Part shown: one piece after another, positions 1 through 59,926 of the stretch
Layout: every line of letters starts with the position of its first letter
Position numbering within the stretch: the stretch's first letter is position 1
Source: Escherichia coli
Lineage (GTDB): Bacteria; Pseudomonadota; Gammaproteobacteria; Enterobacterales; Enterobacteriaceae
DNA length: 59,926 nt
Reading direction: 5' to 3' (one strand)
Assembly: GCF_003334765.1 (NCBI RefSeq)
Contig: NZ_QOWT01000024.1
The notes under the pieces: model-generated
What the model was told of the DNA's origin: nothing
Seen by the model: the letters and a program-made list of their open reading frames with translations, nothing else
Databases searched by the model: none
Translations under genes and position numbers: made by a program

Positions 1-97
1 TTATCGTGAGAGTAATTCATCGGCACGTTAAATCATATCAGGCGTAATACCACAACCCTTAAGTTAGCGCTTATGGGGTTTTTCCCCACCGTTCAGG

Positions 98-492
98 GTG
101 TTCCCCGCGCCAGCGGGGATAAACCGGTCATCACGATGAATCAAAATTTCGCCCGGCTGTGTTCCCCGCGCCAGCGGGGATAAACCGCTTCTCCACCGTT
201 TGGCGAATCGGTGTGAGGGGTGTTCCCCGCGCCAGCGGGGATAAACCGATTGTTATAATTATTTATTGAAATATCATTCCGTGTTCCCCGCGCCAGCGGG
301 GATAAACCGAATCTATTGTGAATTTGAAATGGTCCAGCACTGTGTTCCCCGCGCCAGCGGGGATAAACCGGGTAAAAACACGGTCTGAACCGACATTCAT
401 GTGTGTTCCCCGCGTCAGCGGGGATAAACCGGGCGCACTGGATGCGATGATGGATATCACTTGGAGTTCCCCCGCCCCTGCGGTAGAACTCC
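98..492 (+). CRISPR. Type I-E CRISPR array: 7 direct repeats of 29 bp with 6 spacers of 32 bp; last repeat degenerate
   Basis: Repeat GTGTTCCCCGCGCCAGCGGGGATAAACCG at 98-126, 159-187, 220-248, 281-309, 342-370; variant with T at 415 at 403-431; degenerate terminal repeat GAGTTCCCCCGCCCCTGCGGTAGAACTCC at 464-492. Spacers at 127-158, 188-219, 249-280, 310-341, 371-402, 432-463, all exactly 32 bp. The repeat matches the E. coli type I-E repeat family. Confidence 0.95.
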
Positions 493-513
493 CAGCTCCC
501 ATTTTCAAACCCA

Positions 514-1551
514 TCAAGACGCCTTCGCCAGCTCCTTCACCAACGGTAGCATTATCCGCATAACGTCACGGCAGCGACGTTCTATTCTTCCAGGAAGTGC
601 CTTATCAATATGCTGTTGATTATCCAGTCTTACGTCATGCCAGCTATTTCCCGCAGGGAATGCGGCTGTTTTTGCGCGTTGCTGATAACCATCCTTATTC
701 CCAAGATTCCAGTTAGTCGCTTCCACCGAAAGTACAGCAATGCCCGCTTTGTCGAATATTTCTGCGTCATTACAACACCCAGTGCCTTTCGGATAATTTT
801 TATTCAAACCCGGATTGGTCGTTGCGGCTATTCCGTGACTGCGCGCAATTGCCAGCGCCCTGTCGCGCGTTAATTTCCTTACTGCTTCAGGGGTTTTTAC
901 ACCGCTGTTGAAATACAATTTATCGCCAACAATTAAGTTATCGAGATTAATCACCAGCAGCGTATTTTTCTTTTCGGTGTCACTCATCCGCTTGAGTAAA
1001 TTCTCAGCGCCTAATTTCCCTTCCTCTTCGCCGCTGGTCGCCACAAATCGAATACCATACTCGGTAGGCGTATTTTTCAGGCGTTCTGCCAATTCCAGCA
1101 TGACACCTAAACCTGCGGCGTTATCATCCATTCCTTGTAACGTCAGCCCGCCGAGATTGGCATCGGCGTCAGCATCGCTCAGCGGGGCGTAAGTATCCAG
1201 ATGCGCCATAATGATGATCTGCTGCGGCGCTTTGCCTTCATGAGCGGCAATCACCGTACTTCCTGTCACGTTATGCCAGTTCTTGCGATTATCGCGGGCG
1301 GTATAAATATACCGACTATTAAATGTCCGAATATCACTGCGATAACCCATTTGCTGAAACTGTTGGCGAATATAATCGGCAGATAACATTTCTGCTGGAG
1401 TTCCGGTCATGCGTCCCGGAAAGAAAGTAGCAATATGTCGTGCCTGGGTATTAGCAAAATCGCCAGGTTTAGGTGACGAGGCGTGTACGGGGAGAATAAA
1501 GCATACGCCGAGCGCTAGGGCAGCGGTACGGTGGCGCAATGCGGAAAACAT
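514..1551 (-). CDS. iap: Alkaline phosphatase isozyme conversion aminopeptidase
   Basis: 345 aa ORF, N-terminal signal peptide (MFSALRHRTAALALGVCFILPVHA), M28-type peptidase; lies next to the CRISPR array as in E. coli. Confidence 0.9.
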   Translation of the reverse strand: MFSALRHRTAALALGVCFILPVHASSPKPGDFANTQARHIATFFPGRMTGTPAEMLSADYIRQQFQQMGYRSDIRTFNSRYIYTARDNRKNWHNVTGSTVIAAHEGKAPQQIIIMAHLDTYAPLSDADADANLGGLTLQGMDDNAAGLGVMLELAERLKNTPTEYGIRFVATSGEEEGKLGAENLLKRMSDTEKKNTLLVINLDNLIVGDKLYFNSGVKTPEAVRKLTRDRALAIARSHGIAATTNPGLNKNYPKGTGCCNDAEIFDKAGIAVLSVEATNWNLGNKDGYQQRAKTAAFPAGNSWHDVRLDNQQHIDKALPGRIERRCRDVMRIMLPLVKELAKAS

Positions 1552-1802
1552 AGTGAGTCCTTAAATACCATGCAAATTTTTTTACCGCCATAGTATGAAA
1601 CTGCCGCTGCGCTAAAACAATTTCAAATCTTCCTAAACGCCCGAAATCCGGTGCCTTAAGCACTTTTTGATATTAGCTTTGCCAAATCGTTATTCCGTTA
1701 AGGAACTACTCATTCTAATTGGTAATTTCATTCGTTCTCTTACGCTCCCTATAGTCGAAACATCTGATGGCAAGAAAATAGCGGTATTGCAAAGGAACGG
1801 TT

Positions 1803-2711
1803 ATGGATCAAATACGACTTACTCACCTGCGGCAACTGGAGGCGGAAAGCATCCACATTATTCGCGAGGTGGCGGCAGAATTCTCAAATCCGGTGATGCT
1901 CTACTCTATCGGTAAAGATTCCAGCGTCATGCTGCATCTGGCGCGCAAGGCGTTTTATCCAGGTACGCTGCCTTTCCCGTTGCTGCATGTCGATACCGGC
2001 TGGAAATTCCGCGAGATGTATGAGTTCCGCGATCGTACGGCGAAAGCCTACGGCTGCGAGCTGCTGGTGCATAAAAACCCGGAAGGCGTGGCGATGGGGA
2101 TTAATCCATTCGTGCACGGCAGCGCGAAACATACCGATATTATGAAAACTGAAGGCCTGAAACAGGCGCTGAACAAATACGGTTTTGATGCCGCCTTCGG
2201 TGGTGCGCGCCGTGACGAAGAGAAATCCCGCGCTAAAGAGCGAATCTACTCTTTCCGTGACCGCTTCCATCGCTGGGATCCGAAAAATCAGCGCCCAGAG
2301 CTGTGGCACAACTACAACGGGCAAATTAACAAAGGCGAAAGCATCCGCGTCTTCCCGCTCTCTAACTGGACCGAGCAGGATATCTGGCAATACATCTGGC
2401 TGGAAAATATCGACATTGTGCCGCTGTATCTCGCTGCGGAACGTCCGGTTCTGGAACGCGACGGTATGTTGATGATGATTGATGACAACCGTATCGACCT
2501 GCAACCGGGCGAAGTGATTAAAAAACGGATGGTGCGTTTCCGTACGCTGGGCTGCTGGCCGCTGACCGGTGCGGTGGAGTCAAATGCACAAACACTACCG
2601 GAGATCATCGAAGAGATGCTGGTTTCTACCACCAGTGAACGTCAGGGCCGCGTGATTGACCGCGACCAGGCGGGGTCTATGGAGCTGAAAAAACGTCAGG
2701 GGTATTTTTAA
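1803..2711 (+). CDS. cysD: Sulfate adenylyltransferase subunit 2
   Basis: 302 aa ORF, PAPS reductase-like fold, recognised CysD sequence; followed by cysN with 1 bp spacing. Confidence 0.95.
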
Positions 2712-2712
2712 G

Positions 2713-4140
2713 ATGAACACCGCACTTGCACAACAAATCGCCAATGAAGGCGGCGTCGAAGCCTGGATGATTGCGCAACAACATAAAAGCCTGCTGCGTT
2801 TTCTGACCTGTGGTAGCGTCGATGACGGCAAAAGTACCCTGATTGGTCGCCTGCTGCACGATACCCGCCAAATCTACGAAGATCAGCTCTCATCGCTGCA
2901 TAACGACAGTAAACGTCACGGCACCCAGGGCGAAAAGCTGGATCTGGCACTGCTGGTGGACGGCCTGCAAGCTGAGCGCGAACAGGGCATCACCATTGAC
3001 GTGGCTTACCGCTATTTCTCTACCGAGAAGCGTAAATTTATTATCGCCGACACCCCAGGGCACGAGCAGTACACCCGCAATATGGCGACTGGCGCATCGA
3101 CATGTGAACTGGCGATCTTACTGATCGATGCCCGTAAAGGCGTGCTCGATCAAACCCGTCGTCACAGTTTTATCTCCACACTGTTGGGGATCAAACATCT
3201 GGTCGTGGCGATCAACAAAATGGATCTGGTGGATTACAGTGAAAAGACGTTCACCCGTATTCGTGAAGATTATCTGACCTTTGCCGGGCAGCTGCCGGGT
3301 AATCTGGATATCCGCTTTGTGCCGCTCTCTGCACTGGAAGGCGACAACGTGGCTTCGCAAAGTGAAAGTATGGCGTGGTACAGCGGTCCAACACTGCTCG
3401 AAGTGCTGGAAACCGTGGAGATCCAGCGAGTGGTGGATGCTCAGCCAATGCGCTTCCCGGTGCAGTACGTTAATCGCCCGAATCTCGATTTTCGTGGTTA
3501 CGCCGGAACGCTGGCATCCGGTCGCGTAGAAGTCGGGCAACGAGTCAAAGTGCTGCCCTCTGGTGTGGAATCAAACGTCGCCCGGATCGTGACTTTTGAT
3601 GGCGATCGCGAAGAAGCCTTTGCCGGAGAAGCGATCACCCTGGTGCTGACGGATGAGATCGACATCAGCCGTGGCGATCTGCTGCTGGCGGCAGACGAAG
3701 CGTTACCAGCTGTGCAGAGCGCGTCGGTGGATGTGGTATGGATGGCGGAACAGCCGCTTTCCCCGGGCCAGAGTTATGACATCAAAATTGCCGGTAAGAA
3801 GACGCGTGCTCGTGTTGATGGCATTCGTTATCAGGTTGATATTAATAACCTTACCCAACGCGAAGTTGAAAACCTGCCGCTGAACGGCATCGGCCTGGTG
3901 GATCTCACTTTTGACGAGCCACTGGTGTTAGATCGTTATCAGCAAAACCCGGTTACCGGTGGGCTGATTTTTATCGATCGCCTGAGCAATGTGACCGTAG
4001 GTGCCGGTATGGTGCATGAGCCAGTTAGCCAGGCAACTGCTGCGCCATCTGAATTTAGTGCATTCGAACTGGAATTGAATGCCCTGGTTCGCCGCCACTT
4101 TCCACACTGGGGCGCGCGCGATTTGCTGGGGGATAAATAA
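2713..4140 (+). CDS. cysN: Sulfate adenylyltransferase subunit 1 (GTPase)
   Basis: 475 aa ORF with GTP-binding motif [11 protein letters not shown]-Tu-like. Confidence 0.95.
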
Positions 4141-4745
4141 TGGCGCTGCATGACGAAAACGTCGTCTGGCATAGCCATCCGGTCACTGTGCAACAACGCG
4201 AGCTACACCACGGTCATCGTGGTGTAGTGCTGTGGTTTACCGGCCTCTCCGGGTCCGGTAAATCAACGGTCGCCGGGGCGCTGGAGGAGGCGTTACATAA
4301 ACTCGGCGTCAGTACGTATCTGCTGGATGGCGATAATGTTCGCCACGGATTATGCAGCGATCTCGGTTTTAGCGATGCCGATCGTAAAGAGAATATCCGT
4401 CGCGTCGGTGAAGTGGCGAATTTGATGGTTGAAGCCGGACTGGTGGTGCTGACCGCATTTATCTCGCCACACCGCGCCGAACGCCAGATGGTTCGTGAAC
4501 GCGTAGGAGAAGGGCGCTTTATCGAAGTGTTTGTCGATACGCCGCTGGCGATTTGCGAAGCCCGCGATCCAAAAGGCTTATATAAGAAAGCGCGTGCCGG
4601 TGAACTGCGCTACTTTACGGGAATAGATTCCGTTTACGAAGCGCCTGAATCGGCAGAAATTCATCTCAATGGTGAACAATTAGTAACAAATTTGGTACAG
4701 CAATTATTAGATCTGTTGAGACAGAACGATATTATCAGATCCTGA
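4140..4745 (+). CDS. cysC: Adenylylsulfate (APS) kinase
   Basis: 201 aa ORF, P-loop GLSGSGKST; start overlaps the cysN stop (translational coupling). Confidence 0.95.
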
Positions 4746-4794
4746 GACACCACCGGGTTTCCATGCCCGGTTCGTCAAAGTAACAGGATCAAAT

Positions 4795-5118
4795 ATGCGT
4801 AATAGCCATAACATTACACTAACAAATAACGACAGCCTTACTGAGGATGAAGAAACCACATGGTCACTGCCTGGTGCCGTGGTCGGTTTTATCTCCTGGT
4901 TATTTGCGCTGGCGATGCCGATGTTGATTTATGGCTCTAACACGCTGTTCTTCTTTATCTACACCTGGCCTTTCTTTCTTGCGCTGATGCCCGTCGCGGT
5001 AGTGGTGGGGATTGCGCTGCATTCATTGATGGACGGAAAGCTACGCTACAGTATTGTTTTCACCCTGGTGACAGTAGGCATTATGTTTGGCGCACTGTTT
5101 ATGTGGCTACTGGGCTAA
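4795..5118 (+). CDS. ygbE: Small inner-membrane protein of unknown function
   Basis: 107 aa ORF with hydrophobic segments; conserved position between cysC and ftsB. Confidence 0.75.
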   Translation: MRNSHNITLTNNDSLTEDEETTWSLPGAVVGFISWLFALAMPMLIYGSNTLFFFIYTWPFFLALMPVAVVVGIALHSLMDGKLRYSIVFTLVTVGIMFGALFMWLLG

Positions 5119-5311
5119 TTTGTACTTTCCCGTCTCCTCTGTTCATAATTCAAACCGTAACTAATAATGAGATTATGTTCTGCACGCCCTGGGTATACGT
5201 AACAATGGACAAATGTGGTACATTTGCCCGCGTTGTCGCGGTATCCCCAACAGAGGATGTAGAGTCGTCTTCGGATGCATGGGATGATGATGCCGTTTTT
5301 CAGGGGGCAGG

Positions 5312-5623
5312 ATGGGTAAACTAACGCTGCTGTTGCTGGCTATTCTGGTCTGGCTACAGTATTCGCTGTGGTTCGGTAAGAACGGTATACATGACTATAC
5401 CCGCGTCAATGATGATGTGGCGGCACAGCAAGCTACAAACGCGAAACTTAAAGCGCGAAACGATCAACTTTTTGCCGAAATTGACGATCTCAATGGCGGC
5501 CAGGAGGCGCTCGAAGAGCGTGCGCGTAATGAACTCAGCATGACCAGGCCGGGCGAAACTTTTTATCGTCTGGTGCCTGACGCGTCGAAGCGCGCACAGT
5601 CTGCGGGGCAAAACAATCGATAA
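5312..5623 (+). CDS. ftsB: Cell division protein FtsB
   Basis: 103 aa ORF, N-terminal transmembrane segment followed by coiled coil. Confidence 0.9.
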
Positions 5624-5641
5624 ATCAGCCCGGGAATTAAC

Positions 5642-6352
5642 ATGGCAACCACTCATTTGGATGTTTGCGCCGTGGTTCCGGCGGCCGGATTTGGCCGTCG
5701 AATGCAAACGGAATGTCCTAAGCAATATCTCTCAATCGGTAATCAAACCATTCTTGAACACTCGGTGCATGCGCTGCTGGCGCATCCCCGGGTGAAACGA
5801 GTCGTCATTGCCATAAGTCCTGGCGATAGCCGTTTTGCACAACTTCCTCTGGCGAATCATCCGCAAATCACCGTTGTAGATGGCGGTGATGAGCGTGCCG
5901 ATTCCGTGCTGGCAGGTCTGAAAGCCGCTGGCGACGCGCAGTGGGTATTGGTGCATGACGCCGCTCGTCCTTGTTTGCATCAGGATGACCTCGCGCGATT
6001 GTTGGCGTTGAGCGAAACCAGCCGCACGGGGGGGATCCTCGCCGCACCAGTGCGCGATACTATGAAACGTGCCGAACCGGGCAAAAATGCCATTGCTCAT
6101 ACCGTTGATCGCAACGGCTTATGGCACGCGCTGACGCCGCAATTTTTCCCTCGTGAGCTGTTACATGACTGTCTGACGCGCGCTCTAAATGAAGGCGCGA
6201 CTATTACCGACGAAGCCTCGGCGCTGGAATATTGCGGATTCCATCCTCAGTTGGTCGAAGGCCGTGCGGATAACATTAAAGTCACGCGCCCGGAAGATTT
6301 GGCACTGGCCGAGTTTTACCTCACCCGAACCATCCATCAGGAGAATACATAA
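5642..6352 (+). CDS. ispD: 2-C-methyl-D-erythritol 4-phosphate cytidylyltransferase
   Basis: 236 aa ORF, recognised IspD sequence; start overlaps into ispF. Confidence 0.95.
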
Positions 6353-6831
6353 TGCGAATTGGACACGGTTTTGACGTACATGCCTTTGGCGGTGAAGGCC
6401 CAATTATCATTGGTGGCGTACGCATTCCTTACGAAAAAGGATTGCTGGCGCATTCTGATGGCGACGTGGCGCTCCATGCGTTGACCGATGCATTGCTTGG
6501 CGCGGCGGCGCTGGGGGATATCGGCAAGCTGTTCCCGGATACCGATCCGGCATTTAAAGGTGCCGATAGCCGCGAGCTGCTACGCGAAGCCTGGCGTCGT
6601 ATTCAGGCGAAGGGTTATACCCTTGGCAACGTCGATGTCACTATCATCGCTCAGGCACCGAAGATGTTGCCGCACATTCCACAAATGCGCGTGTTTATTG
6701 CCGAAGATCTCGGCTGCCATATGGATGATGTTAACGTGAAAGCCACTACTACGGAAAAACTGGGATTTACCGGACGTGGGGAAGGGATTGCCTGTGAAGC
6801 GGTGGCGCTACTCATTAAGGCAACAAAATGA
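6352..6831 (+). CDS. ispF: 2-C-methyl-D-erythritol 2,4-cyclodiphosphate synthase
   Basis: 159 aa ORF beginning [12 protein letters not shown], recognised IspF. Confidence 0.95.
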
Positions 6832-7857
6832 TTGAGTTTGATAATCTCACTTACCTCCACGGTAAACCGCAAGGCACCGGGCTGCTGAAAGCCAATCCGG
6901 AAGACTTTGTGGTGGTGGAAGATTTGGGCTTTGAGCCTGATGGTGAAGGTGAGCATATTCTGGTTAGAATCCTCAAAAACGGCTGCAATACCCGTTTTGT
7001 GGCGGATGCACTGGCGAAATTCCTGAAAATTCATGCCCGTGAAGTCAGCTTCGCTGGGCAAAAAGACAAACATGCTGTTACGGAACAGTGGTTATGCGCT
7101 CGCGTGCCGGGCAAGGAAATGCCCGATCTGAGCGCCTTTCAACTGGAAGGCTGCCAGGTGCTGGAGTATGCGCGGCACAAGCGCAAGCTGCGTTTAGGGG
7201 CGCTGAAAGGAAACGCCTTTACCCTGGTTCTGCGCGAAGTGAGCAATCGCGATGACGTTGAACAACGTCTGAACGATATTTGCGTAAAAGGTGTACCGAA
7301 CTACTTCGGTGCCCAACGTTTTGGGATTGGCGGTAGCAACTTGCAGGGGGCGCAGCGCTGGGCGCAAACCAATACTCCGGTGCGCGATCGCAATAAACGG
7401 AGTTTTTGGTTGTCGGCAGCCCGCAGTGCGTTGTTTAATCAGATTGTTGCTGAGCGCCTCAAAAAAGCAGACGTTAATCAAGTTGTTGACGGCGATGCGC
7501 TACAATTAGCCGGACGTGGTAGCTGGTTTGTCGCAACCACCGAAGAACTGGCGGAATTACAGCGTCGCGTTAACGATAAAGAGCTGATGATAACCGCCGC
7601 ATTGCCGGGCAGTGGCGAATGGGGAACTCAGCGTGAAGCGCTGGCATTCGAACAAGCAGCTGTCGCCGCAGAAACTGAATTACAAGCTTTACTGGTGCGC
7701 GAAAAAGTTGAAGCCGCGCGCAGAGCGATGCTGCTGTATCCGCAACAATTAAGCTGGAATTGGTGGGATGACGTCACCGTAGAGATCCGTTTCTGGCTTC
7801 CGGCGGGTAGTTTTGCAACCAGCGTTGTCAGGGAACTTATCAACACAACAGGTGATT

Positions 7858-7877
<20 letters not shown>
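6828..7877 (+). CDS. truD: tRNA pseudouridine(13) synthase
   Basis: 349 aa ORF, recognised TruD; 4 bp overlap with ispF. Confidence 0.93.
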
Positions 7878-9239
<1,362 letters not shown>

Positions 9240-11573: not shown

Positions 11574-11588
11574 GTAAGCATCTGTCAG

Positions 11589-11661
11589 AAAGGCCAGTCT
11601 CAAGCGAGGCTGGCCTTTTCTGTGCACAATAAAAGGTCCGATGCCCATCGGACCTTTTTAT
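11589..11661. terminator. Bidirectional intrinsic terminators between convergent rpoS and ygbN
   Basis: Hairpin AGGCCAG-N12-CTGGCCT flanked by AAA and TTTT (11589-11620); hairpin GGTCCGATG-N3-CATCGGACC flanked by AAAA and TTTTTATT (11631-11662). Confidence 0.85.
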
Positions 11662-11666
11662 TAAGG

Positions 11667-13031
11667 TCAAATTACCGCCCATACGCACCAGGTAATTAAG
11701 AATCCGGTAAAACCGAGAATGGTCGTTAACACTGTCCAGGTTTTCAGACCGTCTGCTACCGATAACCCCAGATATTTGGTCACAATCCAGAACCCTGAGT
11801 CATTAATATGTGACGCACCAAGCCCACCAAAGCAGGCTGCCAGCGTCACCAATACGCACTGAATCGGATTCAATCCCATCACCGCTTCTGAGAGTAACCC
11901 GCCGGTTGTCAGTATTGCTACGGTTGCTGACCCCTGCGATGCACGCAGCGCCAGTGAAATAATAAATGCGGCTGGTAACAGAGGCAGGTCAATCATTTGT
12001 AGCATGTTGGCAAGGGCTTTGCCGACGCCCGATTCCACCAGCACTTTGCCAAATACCCCTCCAGCACCAGTAACCAAAATCACTACCGCCGCAGTAGGAA
12101 GCGCTGAGCCCATAATGTCGCTGGTGTGTTGTAAGCTCCAGCCGCGACGTAAAGCCAATAACCAGAATGCCAGCACCAGCGCAATCATTAGAGCTACCAT
12201 TGGTGAGCCGATCAGCTGTAGCGTACCAAGCAGGGGATGCGAAGGCGGCATCAGTGTTGCGGAAACCGTACCCGCCATGATAATCGCGATAGGAATAACA
12301 ATTAGCGAGGTGACCAGCGCGACGCCCGGTGGATTTATTTTATCGCTTAATTTTGTCGCGCCTTCCTCACTGGCCGGAGCCAGTTGCATCTGTTCCAGTA
12401 CTTCTACTGACATCGCATATTGGCGCTTATTGATTATTTTCGCTGCAAAGTAGCCAACAACCCCTACGGGAATAGAAATCGCAATACCGATGATGGTTAG
12501 CCAGCCGATGTCTGCGTGGAGTAACCCCGCTGCGGCGACAGGGCCTGGATGCGGCGGTACCGCCACGTGAACAGTGAGCATGATCCCAGCGACAGGCAGG
12601 CCAAATTTGAGTGGCGATATTTTGGCAACCTTGGCAAAACCGTAAATGATTGGCGCAAGAATAATAAAGCCGACATCAAAGAAGACGGGAATACCGAGGA
12701 AGAACGCTGCCAGAGTCAGCGCAGCGATAGTTCGTTTGTCACCTAACTTGCGACTGAAATAATTAGCCAGTGACTCTGCACCACCAGAGTGTTCGATCAT
12801 ACGCCCCAGCATAGCGCCCAGACCAATAATAATAGTGACGGAACCAAGCACACCGCCCATCCCGGCGATCATCACTTTACCCACTTCGCCCGCCGGTATA
12901 CCCGCCGCAAGTGCGACTAACAGGCTGACGAGGAGCAGAGCAACGAATGGTTGTACCTTTGCCTTGATGACCAGCAGCAACAGCATGATTACGCCAGTTA
13001 ACGCAATGCATAACAATGTAATTGTGGACAT
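11667..13031 (-). CDS. ygbN: GntP-family acid-sugar permease
   Basis: 454 aa polytopic membrane ORF typical of gluconate:H+ symporter family. Confidence 0.85.
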   Translation of the reverse strand: MSTITLLCIALTGVIMLLLLVIKAKVQPFVALLLVSLLVALAAGIPAGEVGKVMIAGMGGVLGSVTIIIGLGAMLGRMIEHSGGAESLANYFSRKLGDKRTIAALTLAAFFLGIPVFFDVGFIILAPIIYGFAKVAKISPLKFGLPVAGIMLTVHVAVPPHPGPVAAAGLLHADIGWLTIIGIAISIPVGVVGYFAAKIINKRQYAMSVEVLEQMQLAPASEEGATKLSDKINPPGVALVTSLIVIPIAIIMAGTVSATLMPPSHPLLGTLQLIGSPMVALMIALVLAFWLLALRRGWSLQHTSDIMGSALPTAAVVILVTGAGGVFGKVLVESGVGKALANMLQMIDLPLLPAAFIISLALRASQGSATVAILTTGGLLSEAVMGLNPIQCVLVTLAACFGGLGASHINDSGFWIVTKYLGLSVADGLKTWTVLTTILGFTGFLITWCVWAVI

Positions 13032-13119
13032 GGGAAACCCTGTCTGAAAGTTATAGTTAACCTACCCCATCCGTAGATGGGGGGATGTATGGGTACGTTG
13101 TAATTAGGGATTTAACGAA

Positions 13120-13896
13120 TTAGCGCCAGGCGTCAAACCAGCCAAGCCCTTCTTCGGTGAGGCCACGAGGTTTATATTCACAACCGATCCAGCCCTGATA
13201 TCCCACCTCATCGAACAGGCGGAACAGCCACGGATAGTTGATTTCTCCATCGTCCGGTTCATGTCGATCAGGTAGTCCGGCAATTTGTACGTGCGCATAT
13301 TTCCCGGCGTAGTCGCGGATTAAATGCGTCAGGTTGCCATCTACTTTTTGCGCATGAAAAGTATCTAGTTGAATAAACACGTTATCTCGCGCAACTTCTT
13401 CAACAATAGCCAGTGCCTGATACTGGCTGGAGAAGAGATAATGAGGCTTAACGCCGGGGCTGAGTGCTTCAACTAATATTCGCTTGCCGTGTGGCGCAAA
13501 GCGGTCGGCAGCGTAGCGGAGATTATCGATAAATACTGCCCGGTACCGTTCAGCATCTTCGCCAGCGGGCACGACGCCTGCCATCACATGGACTTGTTCA
13601 CAATTGAGCGCCAATGCATATTCCAGTGCCAGGTCGATGTCTGCGTGTGCTTCGTGCTCACGTCCGGGAAGGGCGGATAATCCCCATTCCCCCGCATTAA
13701 TATCTCCGGGAGCGGTATTGAACAGCGCCAGTGTCAGATGGTTTTGCTCCAGTTGCTTTTGGATTTGCAGGGTGGAGTAGTCATAGGGAAACAGAAATTC
13801 CACAGCATCGAACCCGGCTTTTCGCGCTGCGGCGAAGCGTTCAATAAAAGGCACTTCGGTGAACATCATGGATAAATTAGCTGCAAAACGAGGCAT
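13120..13896 (-). CDS. ygbM: Hydroxypyruvate isomerase-family TIM-barrel enzyme (2-oxo-tetronate isomerase)
   Basis: 258 aa ORF, xylose isomerase-like fold family; functional name from published DUF1537 pathway work, recalled not verified. Confidence 0.8.
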
Positions 13897-13900
13897 TGCA

Positions 13901-14539
13901 TTAACTCCTTAATTCCGCAATTTCACCTGCGGTCAGATAACGGATCGGGCGGTCACCGAGAATAAAAATCAGCTTTGCCGTTTCCTCCAGCTCTTCCATA
14001 TTGTTGGCGGCTTCTTGCAGGCTTTCACCGCAAACCACTGGGCCATGATTTGCCAGTAAAAAAGCCTGATTGTCTGCTGCCAGTTCCGCCAGATCCTGTG
14101 CGATGCGTTTATCGCCCGGTCGGTAATAAGGCACCAGCGGGACATTTCCCATCCGCATCACCACGTATGGTGTGAACGGACGAATAACGTTGCTGCTGTC
14201 CAGCCCTTGCAGGCAGGAAAGCGCCGTCGACCATGTGCTGTGCAAATGCACCACCGCTTTACAACGCGGATTGTTGCGATACAGCGCCAGATGAAAGAGC
14301 ACCTCTTTCGAGGGTTTGTCACCACTTAACCATTCGCCATCCGCGGCGACTTTGGAAAGCCGCTGCGGATCGAGATTGCCCAGGCATGAACCTGTCGGTG
14401 TCGCCAGTAAATTCCCGTCAGGTAAAAGCAGCGACAGATTGCCAGCCGAACCGGTTGCATAGCCGCGCTGAAAGAATGAACTGGCAATCCGCGTCATCTC
14501 CTCTCGCAAAGACTGCTCTACTTTTGCGAAATCGCTCAT
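13901..14539 (-). CDS. ygbL: Class II aldolase/adducin-family enzyme (3-oxo-tetronate 4-phosphate decarboxylase)
   Basis: 212 aa ORF; 4 bp overlap with ygbK. Confidence 0.8.
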
Positions 14540-15798
14540 GATAAAAACTCTCTTTGGGCTCGTGAAAAAAAGGCGTCATCACCGAAGTTGCCAGATTTAA
14601 GGGCGAGTGAGACAGGCTTATCCAGTGCGTTTACCCACGGCACGCCGGGGGAAATGGTTGGGCCAATATGAAACCCTTTTATTCCCAGGCTCTGTGTGAC
14701 TACGCCGGAGGTCTCACCGCCTGCGACAATAAAGCGTGTCACGCCTTCCGCTGCTAACCGCGCCGCTAGTTGAGAAAACAGTGTTTCTACTGCCTGACTG
14801 GCTTTTTGTGCACCGTATTGCTGTTGAATTGCTGCCAATGCGTCAGTGCTGGCGGTGGCAAAAACCAGTGGAGCAAGTACACTTTCCTGGCCCAGAACCC
14901 ACTCTGCCAGTTCGTGTGCATAAGCGGCCAGAGTTTCAATTGAGAGGCAGCGTGCCACATCAACTTCACGGGCTGGTGCAATTTGACGGTAATGTGCTAC
15001 CTGGCGGTTGGTCATTTGAGAGCATGAACCGGAGAGCACTACGCCGCGCCCAGCGAGCGGACGCCCTGCTTTGCGAGCCTGGTTACCGTTTTCTTGCGCC
15101 CACTGCCGGGCCAGGCCAATCGCCAGACCAGAACCGCCCGTTACCAGTGGGGCATCGCGCAAGGCTTCTCCCTGAATTTCCAGATGGTGTTCGGTCAGCG
15201 CATCAAGCACCGCGTAGCGGTAGCCCTCTTGCTGTAAGCGAGCCAGCTCTTGACGAACGGCATCCACACCTTGTTCGAAAACATGTGCCGAAACGACGCC
15301 GCAGCGCCCTGTGGATTGCGCTTCAACCAGACGGGGAAGATAGCTGTCGGTCATGGGATTTACCGGGTGATGGCGCATCCCGGATTCGGCCAGCAGTTGA
15401 TTCATTACGAACAAATACCCCTGATAAACCGTACGTCCGTTGACCGGCAGGGCCGGAGAGAAGACCGTAAACGGCGTGTCGAGAGCATCCATTAAGGCAT
15501 CGGTAACCGGGCCAATATTACCTTTCGCCGTACTGTCGAAAGTAGAGCAGTATTTGAAATAGATCTGTTTGCAACCTTGCTGTTGCAACCAGCTCAGAGC
15601 CGCCAGCGATTGCTGTGTGGCTTCAACCACTGGACAGGAGCGCGTTTTCAGGCTGATCACCAGTGCGTCGATTGCTTCCGGCATTTTACCTGTTGGAACA
15701 CCGTTAATTTGTACCGTTGGTAGACCGTTTTCCACCAGAAAACTGGCGATATCCGTCGCGCCGGTAAAATCATCGGCGATAACGCCAATCTTGATCAT
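14536..15798 (-). CDS. ygbK: DUF1537-family four-carbon acid-sugar kinase
   Basis: 420 aa ORF with N-terminal MIKIGVIADDFTGATD typical of the family; annotated length may differ from the ORF. Confidence 0.8.
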   Translation of the reverse strand: MIKIGVIADDFTGATDIASFLVENGLPTVQINGVPTGKMPEAIDALVISLKTRSCPVVEATQQSLAALSWLQQQGCKQIYFKYCSTFDSTAKGNIGPVTDALMDALDTPFTVFSPALPVNGRTVYQGYLFVMNQLLAESGMRHHPVNPMTDSYLPRLVEAQSTGRCGVVSAHVFEQGVDAVRQELARLQQEGYRYAVLDALTEHHLEIQGEALRDAPLVTGGSGLAIGLARQWAQENGNQARKAGRPLAGRGVVLSGSCSQMTNRQVAHYRQIAPAREVDVARCLSIETLAAYAHELAEWVLGQESVLAPLVFATASTDALAAIQQQYGAQKASQAVETLFSQLAARLAAEGVTRFIVAGGETSGVVTQSLGIKGFHIGPTISPGVPWVNALDKPVSLALKSGNFGDDAFFSRAQREFLS

Positions 15799-16703
15799 GA
15801 TTTCGCTCCCGGTAGAGTGATGCCAGAGAAAATCTTGATAACTGCGCTATCGTCTTCTTTCCCGTAACCCGCGTTACTGGCGCTGGTGAACATATTCAAT
15901 GCTGTTGAGGCCAATGGCAGCGGGAAGTGCAGGGCTTTGGCTGTATCGGCAACCAGACCAAGATCCTTAACAAAAATATCGACGGCTGAATGCGGGGTGT
16001 AATCGCCATCCACCACATGACGCATCCGGTTTTCGAACATCCAGGAATTTCCGGCGGCATTGGTCACGACGTCATACATCACATCCAGCGGGATCCCCGC
16101 ACGGGCTGCAAGTGCCATCGCTTCGGCTCCGGCAGCAATATGTACGCCCGCTAACAACTGGTGAATAATTTTTACGGTCGAACCTAGTCCCGGTTCTGCA
16201 CCTATGCGATAAACTTTTCCGGCAACGGCTTCCAGCACGGGTGCCAGTCGTTCAAAGGCAATATCGCTACCGGAGGCCATGATAGTCATTTCACCGTTAG
16301 CGGCTTTTACTGCACCACCAGAAACTGGCGCATCCAGCATTTCCAGATCGAATCCAGCCAGAGCGGTAGCAATTTCTTGCGCATCAGCACTAGCGATAGT
16401 GGAAGAAACCATTACTGCCGTACCGGGTTTCAGATGTTGTGCAACGCCTGTTTCACCAAACAGCACCTGTTTAACCTGGGCCGCATTGACCACCAGCACC
16501 AGCAGTGCGTCCAGTTTTTCGGCAAACGTCGCGGCGTTATCAGAAACCCCGCAAGCACCTGCCTCTTTCAACGTAGCGCAGGCATTGCTGTTCAGGTCTG
16601 CGCCCCAGGTAGAAAGACCTGCGCGGACACATGACAGTGCTGCTCCCATTCCCATTGACCCTAAGCCAACGATACCGACATGAAACTCAGATCCCGTTTT
16701 CAT
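15795..16703 (-). CDS. ygbJ: 3-hydroxyisobutyrate dehydrogenase-family NAD-dependent dehydrogenase (L-threonate dehydrogenase)
   Basis: 302 aa ORF with Rossmann motif GIVGLGSMG. Confidence 0.8.
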   Translation of the reverse strand: MKTGSEFHVGIVGLGSMGMGAALSCVRAGLSTWGADLNSNACATLKEAGACGVSDNAATFAEKLDALLVLVVNAAQVKQVLFGETGVAQHLKPGTAVMVSSTIASADAQEIATALAGFDLEMLDAPVSGGAVKAANGEMTIMASGSDIAFERLAPVLEAVAGKVYRIGAEPGLGSTVKIIHQLLAGVHIAAGAEAMALAARAGIPLDVMYDVVTNAAGNSWMFENRMRHVVDGDYTPHSAVDIFVKDLGLVADTAKALHFPLPLASTALNMFTSASNAGYGKEDDSAVIKIFSGITLPGAKS

Positions 16704-16898
16704 CTGCTCTCCTTGTTAATTTAAGTGATATTTTGTTTGATATTGTGAATATAAGCGCTGGAAGATAACGATATGGTGATCTGATTCACATAAATTAACA
16801 TTGTGTGTTATTTTATGTGAACTAAGCGTTAGTTGCGCCGCGCACGTTTCGCAGGCAAATAGCGTAGAATGTCAGCAGGACAAAGGAAGGAGCAAAAG

Positions 16899-17666
16899 TT
16901 GATACCCGTAGAGCGTCGCCAAATCATCCTTGAGATGGTAGCTGAAAAAGGCATTGTCAGTATTGCTGAACTAACGGACAGAATGAATGTGTCACATATG
17001 ACCATTCGTCGGGATTTACAAAAACTGGAGCAGCAGGGAGCCGTTGTGCTGGTGTCCGGAGGCGTCCAGTCTCCGGGACGCGTGGCGCATGAACCTTCTC
17101 ATCAGGTAAAAACTGCGCTGGCAATGACGCAAAAAGCGGCTATTGGCAAGCTGGCGGCAAGTCTTGTTCAGCCGGGAAGTTGTATCTATCTGGATGCGGG
17201 AACGACCACGTTAGCGATAGCACAGCATCTGATTCACATGGAGTCACTGACTGTGGTCACAAACGATTTCGTTATTGCGGACTACTTGCTCGACAACAGT
17301 AATTGCACAATTATTCACACTGGCGGTGCAGTGTGTCGGGAAAACCGTTCCTGTGTCGGGGAAGCCGCTGCGACCATGCTGCGCAGCCTGATGATTGATC
17401 AGGCTTTTATTTCTGCATCGTCATGGAGTGTGCGGGGGATTTCTACGCCAGCGGAAGATAAAGTCACGGTGAAACGGGCGATTGCCAGTGCCAGCCGCCA
17501 GCGAGTTTTGGTCTGTGATGCGACGAAATATGGTCAGGTGGCGACATGGCTGGCGTTACCATTAAGCGAGTTTGATCAGATTATTACAGACGACGGTTTG
17601 CCGGAGAGTGCCAGTCGCGCGCTGGTGAAGCAGGATCTCTCTTTGCTGGTAGCGAAAAATGAATAA
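16899..17666 (+). CDS. ygbI: DeoR-family transcriptional regulator
   Basis: N-terminal HTH and C-terminal sugar-phosphate-binding domain; ORF track starts at ATG 16869, but a TTG at 16899 preceded by AGGAGC is the likelier start; divergent from ygbJ. Confidence 0.75.
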   Translation: MIPVERRQIILEMVAEKGIVSIAELTDRMNVSHMTIRRDLQKLEQQGAVVLVSGGVQSPGRVAHEPSHQVKTALAMTQKAAIGKLAASLVQPGSCIYLDAGTTTLAIAQHLIHMESLTVVTNDFVIADYLLDNSNCTIIHTGGAVCRENRSCVGEAAATMLRSLMIDQAFISASSWSVRGISTPAEDKVTVKRAIASASRQRVLVCDATKYGQVATWLALPLSEFDQIITDDGLPESASRALVKQDLSLLVAKNE

Positions 17667-17716
17667 TGGCCTGCAATAACACCGGGTTACTCATGCTTCA
17701 CAGAAGAAGCATGAGA

Positions 17717-18373
17717 CTACTTTATTTTATAAAATGACAGCCGCCCGCTGTTCGGCGATCCGGTATCAATATAAATCTGGTTAGCGAACGTCTGAATGTT
17801 ATCAAACATCATATGTCCAAATATAAAATAATCAGCGCCGTTTATTTGTTGTAACTCGCCATTAAGCGATTTCTGCACACGATCAACAGGCCAGAGTAAT
17901 TCGCTCTCCGCTATTTCTTTACCAAAGAGATATTCACTCCCCGGATAATCTGCATGTGCGATGGCATATTTTATGTTGTCGTTAGTGATTTCAATAATAT
18001 GTGGAAGGTGATGGAATTTCAGCAACAGATCTATTGCCTCTTGTTGCTCTGAATCATTTAAATCGAAAAACCAGTCACCACCGCTGGCAAGCCACATATT
18101 GCCATCGCCAGTTTCGAATGCCTCAAGCGCCATCGCTTCGTGGTTGCCTTTAACCGACGTAAACCAGGGTTGGTTTAGCAGGCGCAGGACGTCAAGACTC
18201 TCCGGTCCACGATCAATATTATCGCCGACAGAAATAAGTAAGTCGATTTCGGGGAAAAAAGAGAGTTGATGTAAGCGGGATTGTAATAACTGATATTCAC
18301 CATGAATATCACCAACGACCCATATATGGCGATAGTGATGGGCATTGATTTTTTGATAGCGTGTAGATGGCAT
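17717..18373 (-). CDS. pphB: Serine/threonine protein phosphatase 2
   Basis: 218 aa ORF with calcineurin-like phosphoesterase motifs GDIHG and GDNIDRG. Confidence 0.9.
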   Translation of the reverse strand: MPSTRYQKINAHHYRHIWVVGDIHGEYQLLQSRLHQLSFFPEIDLLISVGDNIDRGPESLDVLRLLNQPWFTSVKGNHEAMALEAFETGDGNMWLASGGDWFFDLNDSEQQEAIDLLLKFHHLPHIIEITNDNIKYAIAHADYPGSEYLFGKEIAESELLWPVDRVQKSLNGELQQINGADYFIFGHMMFDNIQTFANQIYIDTGSPNSGRLSFYKIK

Positions 18374-18478
18374 GGTTTTACCCTGTAAAATAAGCTTTCC
18401 TATTATACAGGGTGTTTTTATTTTATTCGTCAGTTGTCGTTAATATTCCCGATAGCAAAAGACTATCGGGAATTGTTA

Positions 18479-21040
18479 TTACACCAGGCTCTTCAAGCGA
18501 TAAATCCACTCCAGCGCCTGACGCGGGGTGAGTGAATCCGGATCAAGATTTTCCAGAGCTTCGACCGCAGGCGAAGTTTCTTCTGGTACTGACAGCAAAG
18601 ACATTTGCGTACCATCCACTTGCGTAGCGGCGGCGTTCGGCGAAATGCTTTCCAGCTCACGCAGCTTTTGCCGTGCGCGCTTAATAACCTCTTTTGGCAC
18701 GCCTGCCAGAGCTGCAACCGCCAGGCCGTAGCTTTTGCTCGCCGCGCCATCCTGCACGCTGTGCATAAAGGCAATGGTGTCGCCGTGCTCCAGTGCATCG
18801 AGATGCACGTTAGCGACGCCTTCCATTTTCTCCGGTAACTGGGTCAGCTCGAAATAGTGGGTAGCAAATAACGTCAATGCCTTAATCTTATTCGCCAGAT
18901 TTTCCGCGCACGCCCACGCCAGCGACAGACCATCGTAGGTGGACGTTCCACGCCCGATCTCATCCATTAACACCAGACTGTATTCGGTGGCGTTATGTAA
19001 AATATTGGCGGTTTCAGTCATCTCCACCATAAAGGTTGAGCGCCCGGACGCCAGGTCATCTGCCGCGCCTACGCGGGTAAAGATGCGATCGATAGGTCCA
19101 ATCTCGACTTTTTGTGCCGGTACATAGCTGCCGATGTAGGCCATCAGCGCAATCAGTGCGGTCTGGCGCATATAGGTACTTTTACCGCCCATGTTCGGAC
19201 CGGTGATGATCAACATGCGGCGCTGCGGCGACAGATTCAGCGGGTTGGCGATAAATGGCTCATTCAGTACTTGTTCAACTACCGGATGGCGACCTTCGGT
19301 AATGCGAATGCCCGGTTTATCAATGAAGGTCGGGCAGGTGTAGTTCAGGGTATAGGCCCGTTCCGCCAGGTTAACCAGCACGTCGAGTTCCGCCAGCGCG
19401 CTCGCGCTCTGTTGCAACGCTTCCAGATGCGGCAACAGCAGGTCGAACAGCTCTTCATAAAGCTGTTTTTCCAGTGCCAGTGCTTTGCCTTTTGAGGTGA
19501 GAACTTTATCTTCGTACTCTTTTAGCTCTGGAATGATGTAGCGCTCGGCGTTTTTCAGCGTCTGGCGACGCATGTAGTTGATGGGTGCCAGATGGCTTTG
19601 CCCACGGCTGATTTGAATGTAGTAGCCGTGCACCGCATTAAAGCCAACTTTCAGCGTGTCCAGGCCGGTACGTTCACGCTCGCGGACTTCCAGACGCTCC
19701 AGATAATCGGTCGCGCCGTCAGCCAGCGCGCGCCACTCATCCAGCTCTTCGTTATAGCCCGATGCGATAACACCACCGTCGCGTACCAGCACCGGCGGTG
19801 TGTCGATGATTGCTCGCTCCAGCAGATCGCGCAGCTCGGCAAACTCGCCCATCTTCTCACGTAGCGCCTGTACCGGTGCACTATCGACAGTTTCTAACTG
19901 CGCACGCAGCTCCGGCAGTTGCTGGAAAGCGTGGCGCATACGGGCCAGATCGCGTGGGCGAGCAGTTCGTAAAGCCAGACGTGCCAGAATACGTTCCAGG
20001 TCGCCGACCTGACGCAGTACCGGCTGTAGCCCGGCGGTGAAATCCTGCAATGCGCCAATAGTTTGCTGGCGCTCAAGCAACACGCGGGTATCGCGCACTG
20101 GCATATGCAGCCAGCGTTTCAGCATACGGCTGCCCATCGGCGTGACGGTGCAGTCGAGCACAGAAGCCAGCGTATTTTCCGCACCACCCGCCAGGTTCTG
20201 GGTGATTTCCAGATTACGACGCGTCGCGGCATCCATAATGATGCTGTCCTGCTCACGTTCCATGGTGATGGAACGAATATGCGGCAGAGTCGTACGTTGG
20301 GTATCTTTCGCATACTGCAACAGACAACCGGCAGCACAAAGTCCGCGCGGCGCGTTCTCGACGCCAAAACCGACCAGATCGCGGGTCCCAAATTGCAGAT
20401 TCAACTGCTGGCGCGCGGTGTCGATTTCAAACTCCCACAGCGGGCGACGGCGCAGGCCGCGACGGCCTTCAATTAACGACATTTCAGCAAAATCTTCTGC
20501 ATACAGCAGTTCCGCAGGATTAGTGCGTTGCAGTTCTGCCGCCATCGTTTCGCGGTCAGCCGGTTCGCTCAGGCGAAAACGCCCGGAACTGATATCCAGC
20601 GTCGCGTAGCCGAAACCTTTGCTGTCCTGCCAGATAGCCGCCAGCAGGTTGTCCTGACGCTCCTGCAACAGGGCTTCATCGCTGATGGTGCCTGGCGTAA
20701 CGATACGCACAACTTTGCGCTCAACCGGACCTTTGCTGGTCGCCGGATCGCCAATTTGTTCGCAGATGGCAACGGACTCTCCCTGATTCACCAGTTTGGC
20801 GAGATAGTTTTCCACCGCATGGTAGGGAATCCCCGCCATCGGGATCGGCTCTCCCGCCGAAGCACCGCGTTTGGTCAGTGAAATATCCAGCAGTTGCGAC
20901 GCGCGTTTTGCGTCGTCATAAAACAGTTCATAAAAATCACCCATCCGGTAAAACAGCAGGATCTCGGGATGCTGGGCTTTCAGCCTGAGATACTGCTGCA
21001 TCATGGGCGTATGGGCGTCGAAATTTTCTATTGCACTCAT
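18479..21040 (-). CDS. mutS: DNA mismatch repair protein MutS
   Basis: 853 aa ORF, N-terminus [21 protein letters not shown], Walker [10 protein letters not shown]. Confidence 0.97.
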
Positions 21041-48320: not shown

Positions 48321-49086
48321 TGCTCTCTCCGGTTATGATCACATCGATCCCTTTCTCTTCCAGCGCCTGACGAAACGCCGGATCGATACCTGCGTCGGTA
48401 ATCAGCTTATCGACGCTTTCAAGACTGCAAACTACGTTGGGGCTTTTACGGCCAAACTTTGATGAGTCCGCCATCAAAATCACTTCGCGCGCGGCATTGC
48501 ACATTGCCTTACTGACGGTATAAACCTCGTTAAAGGTGGTTACGCCCGCATTGAGATCGATGCCGTCGGTGCCCATAAACAATTTATCGAAGGTGAAATG
48601 CTCGAAGGCATTCTCTGCCAGTTGCCCGTGAAATGAGGCCGATTTTTTGCGAAACGTTCCGCCTGGCATCAGGATAGTTTGTTCGTTATCCAGTTCGGAT
48701 AGCGCATTGACGATATGCAGGCTGTTGGTCATCACCGTGATGTTATTAAAGCGCGAGAGCAGGGGAACCATCTGCAAAACGGTACTGCCAGCATCAAGAA
48801 TGATCGAATCGCCATCATGGATAAAACTAACGGCAGCTTCTGCAATCAGCTCTTTCTTGTGGGTGTTGATGAGTGTTTTATGATCGATAGGCGGATCGGA
48901 TTCCTCTTTATTCAACACCACTCCGCCATAAGTACGAATGACGGTTCCGGCATGTTCCAGAATGACCAGATCTTTGCGAATGGTTGTGCCTGTGGTGTCA
49001 AAGTATTGCGCCAATTCTTCAACCGAGCATTTACCCTGCTTTTGCAGATACTCCAGAATGGCGGCCTGACGCTGACGAGGTTTCAT
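48313..49086 (-). CDS. srlR: DeoR-family glucitol operon repressor
   Basis: 257 aa ORF with N-terminal HTH. Confidence 0.95.
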
Positions 49087-59487: not shown

Positions 59488-59580
59488 GGTGAGGTGGCCG
59501 AGAGGCTGAAGGCGCTCCCCTGCTAAGGGAGTATGCGGTCAAAAGCTGCATCCGGGGTTCGAATCCCCGCCTCACCGCCA
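59488..59580 (+). tRNA. serV: tRNA-Ser (anticodon GCU), long variable arm
   Basis: 93 nt; acceptor stem GGTGAGG...CCTCACC plus CCA, anticodon loop CCTGCTAAGG, T-loop GGTTCGAATCC. Confidence 0.93.
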
Positions 59581-59583
59581 TTT

Positions 59584-59660
59584 GCATCCGTAGCTCAGCT
59601 GGATAGAGTACTCGGCTACGAACCGAGCGGTCGGAGGTTCGAATCCTCCCGGATGCACCA
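59584..59660 (+). tRNA. argV: tRNA-Arg (anticodon ACG)
   Basis: 77 nt; GCATCCG acceptor stem, anticodon loop GGCTACGAACC, T-loop GGTTCGAATCC, 3' CCA; 3 nt after serV. Confidence 0.93.
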
Positions 59661-59858
59661 TATTCTACGTACTTTCAGCGATGAAGGTATGGAAGAGGTG
59701 GCGGTAATAACCGCAGGCACCAGGGAGGATAACGTTGCTTTAGCAACGGCCCGAAGGGCGAGCCGCAAGGCGAGTAATCCTCCCGGATGCACCATCTCTT
59801 ACTTGATACGGCTTTAGTAGCGGTATCAAAAAATCTGCAGTAAAGTAAGTTTCCCGAT

Positions 59859-59926
59859 GCATCCGTAGCTCAGCTGGATAGAGTACTCGGCTACGAACCG
59901 AGCGGTCGGAGGTTCGAATCCTCCCG
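59859..59926 (+). tRNA. argY: tRNA-Arg (ACG), second tandem copy, truncated by the window end
   Basis: Identical to the first 68 nt of the copy at 59584-59660; starts exactly 275 bp after it. Confidence 0.85.

Follow-up and report, generated by a model that had tools for sequence, protein, structure and literature searches.

The rpoS-mutS interval of a K-12-type Escherichia coli and its YgbI-repressed gene cluster for predicted L-threonate catabolism

Gene content and predicted pathway

We analyzed the DNA between rpoS and mutS in a stretch of 59,926 nt from Escherichia coli (assembly GCF_003334765.1, contig NZ_QOWT01000024.1), referred to below as the window. According to the list of open reading frames (ORFs), the interval from the stop codon of rpoS (11573, plus strand) to that of mutS (18479, minus strand) is exactly 11574-18478 of the window. 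It carries the regulator gene ygbI, the divergent genes ygbJKLM and ygbN, and the phosphatase gene pphB. In order to assign identities to these genes and the two flanking ones, we used NCBIfam equivalog models with their curated cut-offs, and all nine models were exceeded. Scores below are given in bits, followed by the cut-off of the model.

Ending at 11573, plus strand: rpoS (RpoS model, 604 against 394).
11667-13031, minus strand: ygbN, GntP-family permease of 454 amino acids (aa) (NF007332, GntP PRK09821, 827 against 524).
13120-13896, minus strand: ygbM (otnI), 2-oxo-tetronate isomerase, TIM barrel, 258 aa (NF043033, OxoTetrIsom, 396.4 against 325).
13901-14539, minus strand: ygbL (otnC), decarboxylase acting on 3-oxo-tetronate-4-phosphate (NF043034, OxoTetrPhDc, 334.8 against 250).
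14536-15798, minus strand: ygbK (otnK), 3-oxo-tetronate kinase of the DUF1537 family, intact at 420 aa (NF043035, OxoTetrKin, 598 against 350).
15795-16703, minus strand: ygbJ (ltnD), L-threonate (2-)dehydrogenase, 302 aa, first gene of the operon (NF043037, ThreonDh, 473.7 against 350).
16704-16898, no strand: divergent control region of ygbI and ltnD, 195 bp.
16899-17666, plus strand: ygbI, DeoR-family repressor, 255 aa from the TTG start annotated by RefSeq (NF040890, 481.9 against 400).
17717-18373, minus strand: pphB (prpB), PPP-family serine/threonine phosphatase, 218 aa (NF007425, PphB PRK09968, 467 against 332).
18479-21040, minus strand: mutS (MutS model, 1388 against 642).

The gene identifications of the original prediction, which was made from the sequence without database searches, were thus all borne out, every protein scoring above its curated cut-off. 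We read the interval as a K-12-type layout (pattern II, see below) in which a ygbI-repressed ltnD-otnK-otnC-otnI unit, with ygbN as its likely last member, would convert L-threonate to dihydroxyacetone phosphate (DHAP), and in which the catabolic core is ancestral. We give this reading a probability of roughly 80%.

The divergent DeoR-type regulator and the operon structure described in the original prediction agree with both the ORF list and the family models. The overlapping stop and start codons that it had described for the operon are found at two of the three junctions, namely ltnD/otnK and otnK/otnC, each of which overlaps as ATGA; the otnC/otnI junction is instead a 4-nt spacer. We folded the ygbM-ygbN spacer in search of a terminator or other structure and obtained no significant one (z -0.74), and ygbN is therefore probably co-transcribed with otnI. 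The ygbI ORF itself reaches upstream to an ATG at 16869, and the NF040890 match begins at residue 11 of this longer ORF.

The chemistry is known from orthologues in other bacteria. According to the summaries in PMC12540250 and PMC12994016, both citing Zhang et al. 2016, L-threonate is oxidized by LtnD to 2-oxo-tetronate, which is isomerized by OtnI to 3-oxo-tetronate, phosphorylated by OtnK and converted by OtnC to DHAP, with gene-deletion phenotypes summarized alongside the pathway. D-Erythronate, as described in PMC12994016, joins at 2-oxo-tetronate through a separate dehydrogenase, DenD. All four enzyme families of the L-threonate pathway are present here, each above its equivalog cut-off. 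In E. coli, YgbN, a GntP-type symporter, would import L-threonate, a role suggested by conserved synteny; LtnD would oxidize it with NAD+ to 2-oxo-tetronate; OtnI would produce 3-oxo-tetronate; OtnK would phosphorylate this at C4 with ATP; and OtnC would decarboxylate the product to DHAP, which would enter glycolysis. These E. coli steps are provisionally assigned through equivalog-level homology only, the chemistry itself having been shown for orthologues elsewhere.

The individual protein families are consistent with this assignment. OtnK has the Pfam domains PF07005 and PF17042 (SBD_N and NBD_C), has 3DQQ, 1YZY and 5DMH as its nearest solved structures, and groups with 3-oxo-tetronate kinases; against the D-threonate kinase model it scores 131.7 bits, far under the cut-off of 450. 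Its C-terminal motif PGVPW...LALKSGNFG..FF is intact in the window allele. LtnD belongs to the beta-hydroxyacid dehydrogenase family, and its second-best model, tartronate semialdehyde reductase, remains far under its own cut-off. The Salmonella orthologue of OtnI carries the Pfam domain AP_endonuc_2. The combination of a DUF1537 kinase, an aldolase-like decarboxylase and an isomerase had been tied to the catabolism of four-carbon acid sugars in the original prediction, and the family models, Pfam and the literature concur. With respect to current annotation, RefSeq already uses the names ltnD, otnK and otnC, and ygbL is frequently annotated merely as "aldolase". In the genomes that we viewed, the RefSeq pipeline PGAP calls ygbM/otnI an "HPr family phosphocarrier protein" via NF007441/PRK09989. 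This label is a propagated misnomer, as the product of ygbM is a TIM-barrel isomerase that passes the 2-oxo-tetronate isomerase equivalog.

The original prediction had held that the substrate is not established from sequence. We can narrow it to L-threonate, since ltnD is present and denD was not found, and it remains correct that the assignment is based on homology. In Salmonella and Citrobacter, denD adjoins otnI (NF043036, 449.5 bits against 325). In contrast, we obtained no tblastn match to denD in the window (E<=1e-3), and a DNA-level search of 5426 complete E. coli genomes, sensitive down to roughly 65-70% identity, returned no denD match. The E. coli cluster lacks this entry enzyme, unlike those of Salmonella and Citrobacter, and with denD absent L-threonate rather than D-erythronate is the expected substrate of the E. 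coli version. The Salmonella-type GntP likewise had no match in the 5426 genomes.

The order ygbI/ltnD-otnK-otnC-otnI-ygbN without denD also occurs in Anaerobiospirillum, Succinivibrio, another Succinivibrionaceae genome and Desulfovibrio sp. An276, and YgbN is about 56% identical in these clusters. This recurring gene order supports YgbN as the probable cognate transporter.

YgbI control and the otnK frameshift of K-12

The control region between ygbI and ltnD contains four copies of the motif TGTT-N7-GTGA, which we recognized from inverted repeats and conservation as putative YgbI operators.

16714-16728, plus strand: inferred YgbI operator.
16734-16748, plus strand: inferred YgbI operator.
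16786-16800, minus strand: inferred YgbI operator.
16806-16820, plus strand: inferred YgbI operator.

The motif occurs 7 times in the whole window where 1.9 occurrences would be expected, and 4 of the 7 lie inside 107 bp of this spacer. All four sites are kept in E. albertii, Salmonella, S. bongori and Citrobacter, and three are found in the equivalent spacer of Anaerobiospirillum. In K-12, the single genomic peak of YgbI by ChIP-exo is located between ygbI and ygbJ, and deletion of ygbI derepresses ygbJKLMN, which makes YgbI a repressor (PMC8464067). The TGTT-N7-GTGA sites are likely the YgbI operators, and YgbI bound to the four-site cluster, which overlaps the ltnD promoter, would keep the operon off. 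With HTH_DeoR and DeoRC domains, a gene divergent from the target operon and multiple repeated operator half-sites, YgbI is similar to AgaR, GlpR, SrlR and UlaR; unlike that group, it has only one reported genomic target. At 48334-49080, the minus strand of the window holds a further DeoR-family reading frame with 29% identity to YgbI.

Comparison to K-12 MG1655 (NC_000913.3) gave 99.83% identity over 11.5 kb, with 20 differences consisting of 19 substitutions and one indel. The K-12 segment mutS-pphB-ygbI-ygbJKLMN-rpoS (b2733-b2741) has the same gene content, order and junctions as the window. The indel falls in the kinase gene.

14647-14651, minus strand: run of five C in otnK; MG1655 has four, a 1-bp frameshift (K-12 locus 5836-7002; pairwise comparison).

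As a result, MG1655 ygbK encodes 388 aa and is followed by a 91-nt gap before ygbL, whereas otnK of the window encodes 420 aa and overlaps otnC. The frameshift strips OtnK of its last 36 residues, including the PGVPW...LALKSGNFG..FF block, which is conserved in 10 of 10 other aligned sequences from Gamma-, Alpha- and Betaproteobacteria and Desulfovibrio. The exact K-12 allele was found in 371 of 4581 cluster-bearing genomes, and all four of those listed belong to the K-12 lineage. In the remaining 4210 genomes the match to the K-12 query is not exact; among those listed 30 of 36 span 70 nt, which fits the extra C.

RegulonDB models two operons, "ygbJK" and "ygbLM", separated by a 92-nt gap (quoted in PMC4168707), and the same paper notes a transcript that spans ygbK and ygbL. 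Because the intact otnK overlaps otnC by 4 nt, we consider ltnD-otnK-otnC-otnI, with ygbN as its probable extension, to be one operon. Both the operon split and the "indirect" control of ygbLM are most simply explained as artefacts of the K-12 lesion. The E. coli experiments that we found on the ygb operon all used MG1655.

A more tentative proposal, which we hold at somewhat less than even odds, is that natural E. coli with the intact allele would grow on L-threonate but not on D-erythronate by means of YgbN and LtnD-OtnI-OtnK-OtnC, K-12 being a natural null of the pathway. If this were true, three published conclusions on K-12 would reflect artefacts or side activities and not the native function, namely the operon split, a control of ygbLM and ygbN described as "indirect", and the tartrate role of the cluster. 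DeoR-family effectors are usually pathway products of the kinase step or later. If the effector of YgbI arises at or after that step, the frameshift would account as well for the operon never being induced in K-12.

Weighing the substrate

Several points weigh against L-threonate as the substrate. We found no L-threonate enzymology or growth data for the E. coli proteins, and Zhang et al. 2016 enters here through the papers that cite it. The E. coli phenotypes that we did find concern tartrate (PMC8464067, PMC6452873) and 2,4-dihydroxybutyrate, not threonate. LtnD homologues can be promiscuous, and use of L-idonate is reported for the Agrobacterium enzyme (PMC12994016). In addition, the transport role of YgbN is a suggestion from synteny, and D-erythronate could enter the pathway by way of an unrelated enzyme encoded at another genomic site.

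The best surviving alternative is that the cluster is a tartrate catabolic system in which YgbI represses an L- or meso-tartrate pathway, as the K-12 work proposed. The K-12 ygbI deletion strain gains growth on 20 mM L-tartrate (PMC8464067), and two independent lines evolved on m-tartrate had ygbI mutations together with overexpression of ygbJKLMN (PMC6452873). However, each of the four enzymes clears the cut-off of its L-threonate equivalog by a wide margin, and the authors of the evolution study themselves term the activity "likely promiscuous" (PMC6452873). Tartrate does not support growth of the wild type and is hence no inducer. Furthermore, the K-12 strain used has the frameshifted otnK without its conserved motif, and the tartrate phenotype therefore probably does not require the complete pathway; it may rest on uptake by YgbN and/or a side activity of LtnD. 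Derepressed ygbN has also been invoked for the uptake of 2,4-dihydroxybutyrate in E. coli. We consider a dedicated tartrate system unlikely.

It is also quite improbable that the cluster handles D-erythronate, or both four-carbon acid sugars equally, as predicted for the Salmonella-type cluster. Both acids converge on 2-oxo-tetronate, so that OtnI, OtnK and OtnC would be competent for either one. However, the D-erythronate branch needs DenD, which Salmonella, S. bongori and Citrobacter encode next to otnI at the place where E. coli has ygbN, and neither a DenD-like ORF in the window nor denD-like DNA in the 5426 genomes was found.

Layouts, ancestry and significance

The edges of the interval are marked by hairpins, which we evaluated by folding.

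11574-11619, plus strand: rpoS 3' tail and terminator hairpin, left edge of the variable interval (-26.5 kcal/mol, z -5.25).
11620-11627, no strand: K-12-type junction CTGTGCAC, the cassette site in other strains (blastn breakpoints).
11631-11658, minus strand: hairpin with a 12-bp stem directly 3' of ygbN, likely a terminator (-17.2 kcal/mol, z -4.68).
17690-17715, no strand: hairpin in the 50-nt spacer that separates the convergent genes ygbI and pphB (spacer fold -20.9 kcal/mol, z -5.0).
18445-18473, minus strand: hairpin directly 3' of mutS, likely a terminator and the right edge of the interval (-17.6 kcal/mol, z -6.5).

The stem of the rpoS terminator pairs GGCCAG (11592-11597) with CTGGCC (11610-11615) and is followed by a T-run at 11616-11619. 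A scan for promoters and terminators gave 10 and 9 predictions versus 6.9 and 7.8 in shuffles, respectively, which is not above the shuffled level, and overlooked the rpoS and ygbN hairpins. The Rfam search returned no RNA family within the interval; its sole matches were tRNAs toward the end of the window, where three tRNA genes lie at 59488-59926, the last one cut by the window end.

The same 5426 genomes served as our polymorphism survey. The segment was matched in 5417 of them, with at least 80% of it in 4576 (about 84%). About 840 genomes (about 15%, of O157:H7 type) lack the ygb genes and retain about 12% of the segment, consisting of pphB and the ends. In 1948 of the 5426 genomes (about 36%) the exact rpoS-ygbN junction is uninterrupted, a 2.9-kb cassette of marR and hydroxyarylic-acid decarboxylase BCD genes occurs in 2418, and a 2.1-kb cassette of flavodoxin and MBL-hydrolase genes (B2-type) occurs in 1043; these add up to 5409, which accounts for nearly every genome. 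The interval is hence polymorphic, as had been stated in the original prediction, and the segment is not universal within the species. The following layouts were distinguished, with breakpoints from blastn where positions are given.

Layout A (window and K-12): no cassette, ygb present.
Layout B: decarboxylase cassette between 11619 and 11628, plus ygb.
Layout C: B2-type cassette between 11619 and 11679, plus ygb.
Layout D (O157:H7 type): cassette present, 11620-17717 missing, homology restarting at the pphB stop codon (17718).

Layouts A, B, C and D correspond to patterns II, IV, III and I, respectively, of the o454-nlpD typing of Ewers et al. 2014 (PMC4209514). The left edge at 11619, the last T of the rpoS terminator, is common to all layouts, and blastn homology to the E. 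coli layouts, Salmonella, S. bongori and Citrobacter breaks off exactly there. In the decarboxylase-cassette layout the stop codon of decarboxylase D is followed directly by the ygbN-side hairpin (11631-11658), which stays with ygbN. Patterns I, III and IV all share with the window the rpoS terminator edge, pphB and mutS, and patterns III and IV in addition the full ygb cluster at 97-99% identity; the window differs from patterns I, III and IV in having neither cassette.

Some single strains and matches deviate further. Strain ML35 departs from the window, to which it is otherwise 100% identical here, by an insertion in otnC, namely a 2.8-kb IS1-flanked composite (ML35 locus 4398-7229) at the window-equivalent 14462-14470 with a 9-bp target duplication. 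The cargo of this composite consists of a hypothetical gene and one of the CDP-glycerol glycerophosphotransferase family. Strain MEI003 has an additional tetratricopeptide-repeat gene between pphB and mutS, a fifth layout. Three matches to the segment are on E. coli plasmids. Separately, several papers naming both ygbI and ygbJ are, by their titles, about IncX3 plasmids with blaSHV-12 or blaNDM. In the near-identical strain CP131_Sichuan, the region to the left of the window equivalent (1-8858) holds a type I-E CRISPR-Cas system disrupted by IS1 and IS66, with cas3 a pseudogene.

Outside E. coli, Salmonella enterica, S. bongori and Citrobacter freundii likewise have the ygbI/ltnD-otnK-otnC-otnI block in their rpoS-mutS interval. 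Window positions 13120-17659 are about 74% identical in DNA to Salmonella, S. bongori and Citrobacter (blastn), and the proteins are 77-87% identical (OtnI 81% and OtnC 85% to Salmonella at the amino-acid level). A scan of genome contigs with OtnK returned 16 loci, among which E. albertii is the sole close relative; the Salmonella and Citrobacter context was obtained through the protein search. In the E. albertii sequence, which covers the cluster itself, the full ygbI...ygbN set is present with 88% nucleotide identity. The ygbI-ltnD-otnK-otnC-otnI core is under strong purifying selection, and dN/dS is 0.01-0.08 for every gene in comparison to both E. albertii and Salmonella (ygbN 0.014 against E. 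albertii, otnC 0.069, ltnD 0.03-0.08).

The other two genes of the interval have a different distribution. At this locus in Salmonella and Citrobacter, ygbN has no nucleotide homology and is 33% identical to a 498-aa GntP protein placed there. The phosphatase gene pphB, which is unrelated to the catabolic unit, has a GC content of 42.5% versus 53.3% for the window, has no rpoS-mutS counterpart in Salmonella or Citrobacter, and is kept where ygb is deleted; homology to both genera restarts at 18479. Within the species pphB is unusually variable in sequence; about 317 genomes have alleles under 95% identity, some down to about 86%.

Salmonella, S. bongori and C. freundii further differ from the window by having denD and the 498-aa GntP gene after otnI, by always having marR and decarboxylase BCD, and by lacking pphB, and in Salmonella LysR, MFS and DUF4440 genes adjoin mutS. 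Between rpoS and mutS of Salmonella, the whole stretch running from decarboxylase DCB-marR to ygbI-ltnD...denD-gntP is inverted compared with Citrobacter, and the block is inverted compared with E. coli as well; the marR-BCD module of E. coli pattern IV has the opposite orientation and position. This inversion and the shift of marR-BCD indicate that the locus was rearranged repeatedly.

The simplest reading of these comparisons is that the Escherichia/Salmonella/Citrobacter group inherited the ygbI-otnI core at this locus from its ancestor and that the absence of the core in about 15% of E. coli would be a deletion; the O157-type absence looks like loss because Salmonella, S. bongori and Citrobacter also have the core in the rpoS-mutS interval. 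The original prediction had spoken of a variable island. The segment is variable, but the core has none of the usual marks of an island. The ygb genes have 51.6-54.5% GC against the window mean of 53.3%, so that only pphB is atypical in composition, and it is only ygbN and pphB that are absent from the locus in the sister taxa Salmonella and Citrobacter.

In order to weigh the alternative directly, we considered the ygbI-ygbN segment as a recent horizontally acquired island that was inserted in some E. coli lineages. Presence and absence are polymorphic within the species, the locus is a published recombination hot spot (PMC4209514), and ygbN and pphB are without counterpart at the site in Salmonella and Citrobacter. 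However, GC and GC3 are typical of the window, and neither an integrase or transposase ORF, an IS, a tRNA nor a flanking repeat is present within 11574-18478, the junctions showing terminator hairpins instead. In addition, the synteny of the core extends to E. albertii, Salmonella, S. bongori and Citrobacter with dS of vertical magnitude, carriage is 84%, and the lacking strains among the layouts that we examined show a clean deletion with ends at the rpoS terminator and the pphB stop codon. We regard recent acquisition as very improbable. That the cluster is a decaying, functionless remnant of cryptic genes is the least probable alternative. In its favour, the cluster is silent in wild-type K-12, frameshifted there in otnK, interrupted by IS1 in otnC of ML35 and lost from 15% of genomes, but all reading frames of the window are intact, dN/dS is low against both E. 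albertii and Salmonella, and the frameshift allele belongs to those 371 genomes of which the four listed are all of the K-12 lineage.

The interval, its layouts and the pathway family are already known from the literature and routine annotation, and the rpoS-mutS layout is of practical use as a typing marker of E. coli lineages (patterns I-IV). The reference strain K-12 represents the ygb operon poorly, its kinase gene being frameshifted while the allele is intact in the window and in most natural isolates. L-Threonate derives from ascorbate breakdown. If strains with the intact allele use it, L-threonate would be a carbon source that separates commensal-type from O157:H7-type lineages, and the loss of the cluster in the latter would mark a real difference in nutrient niche.

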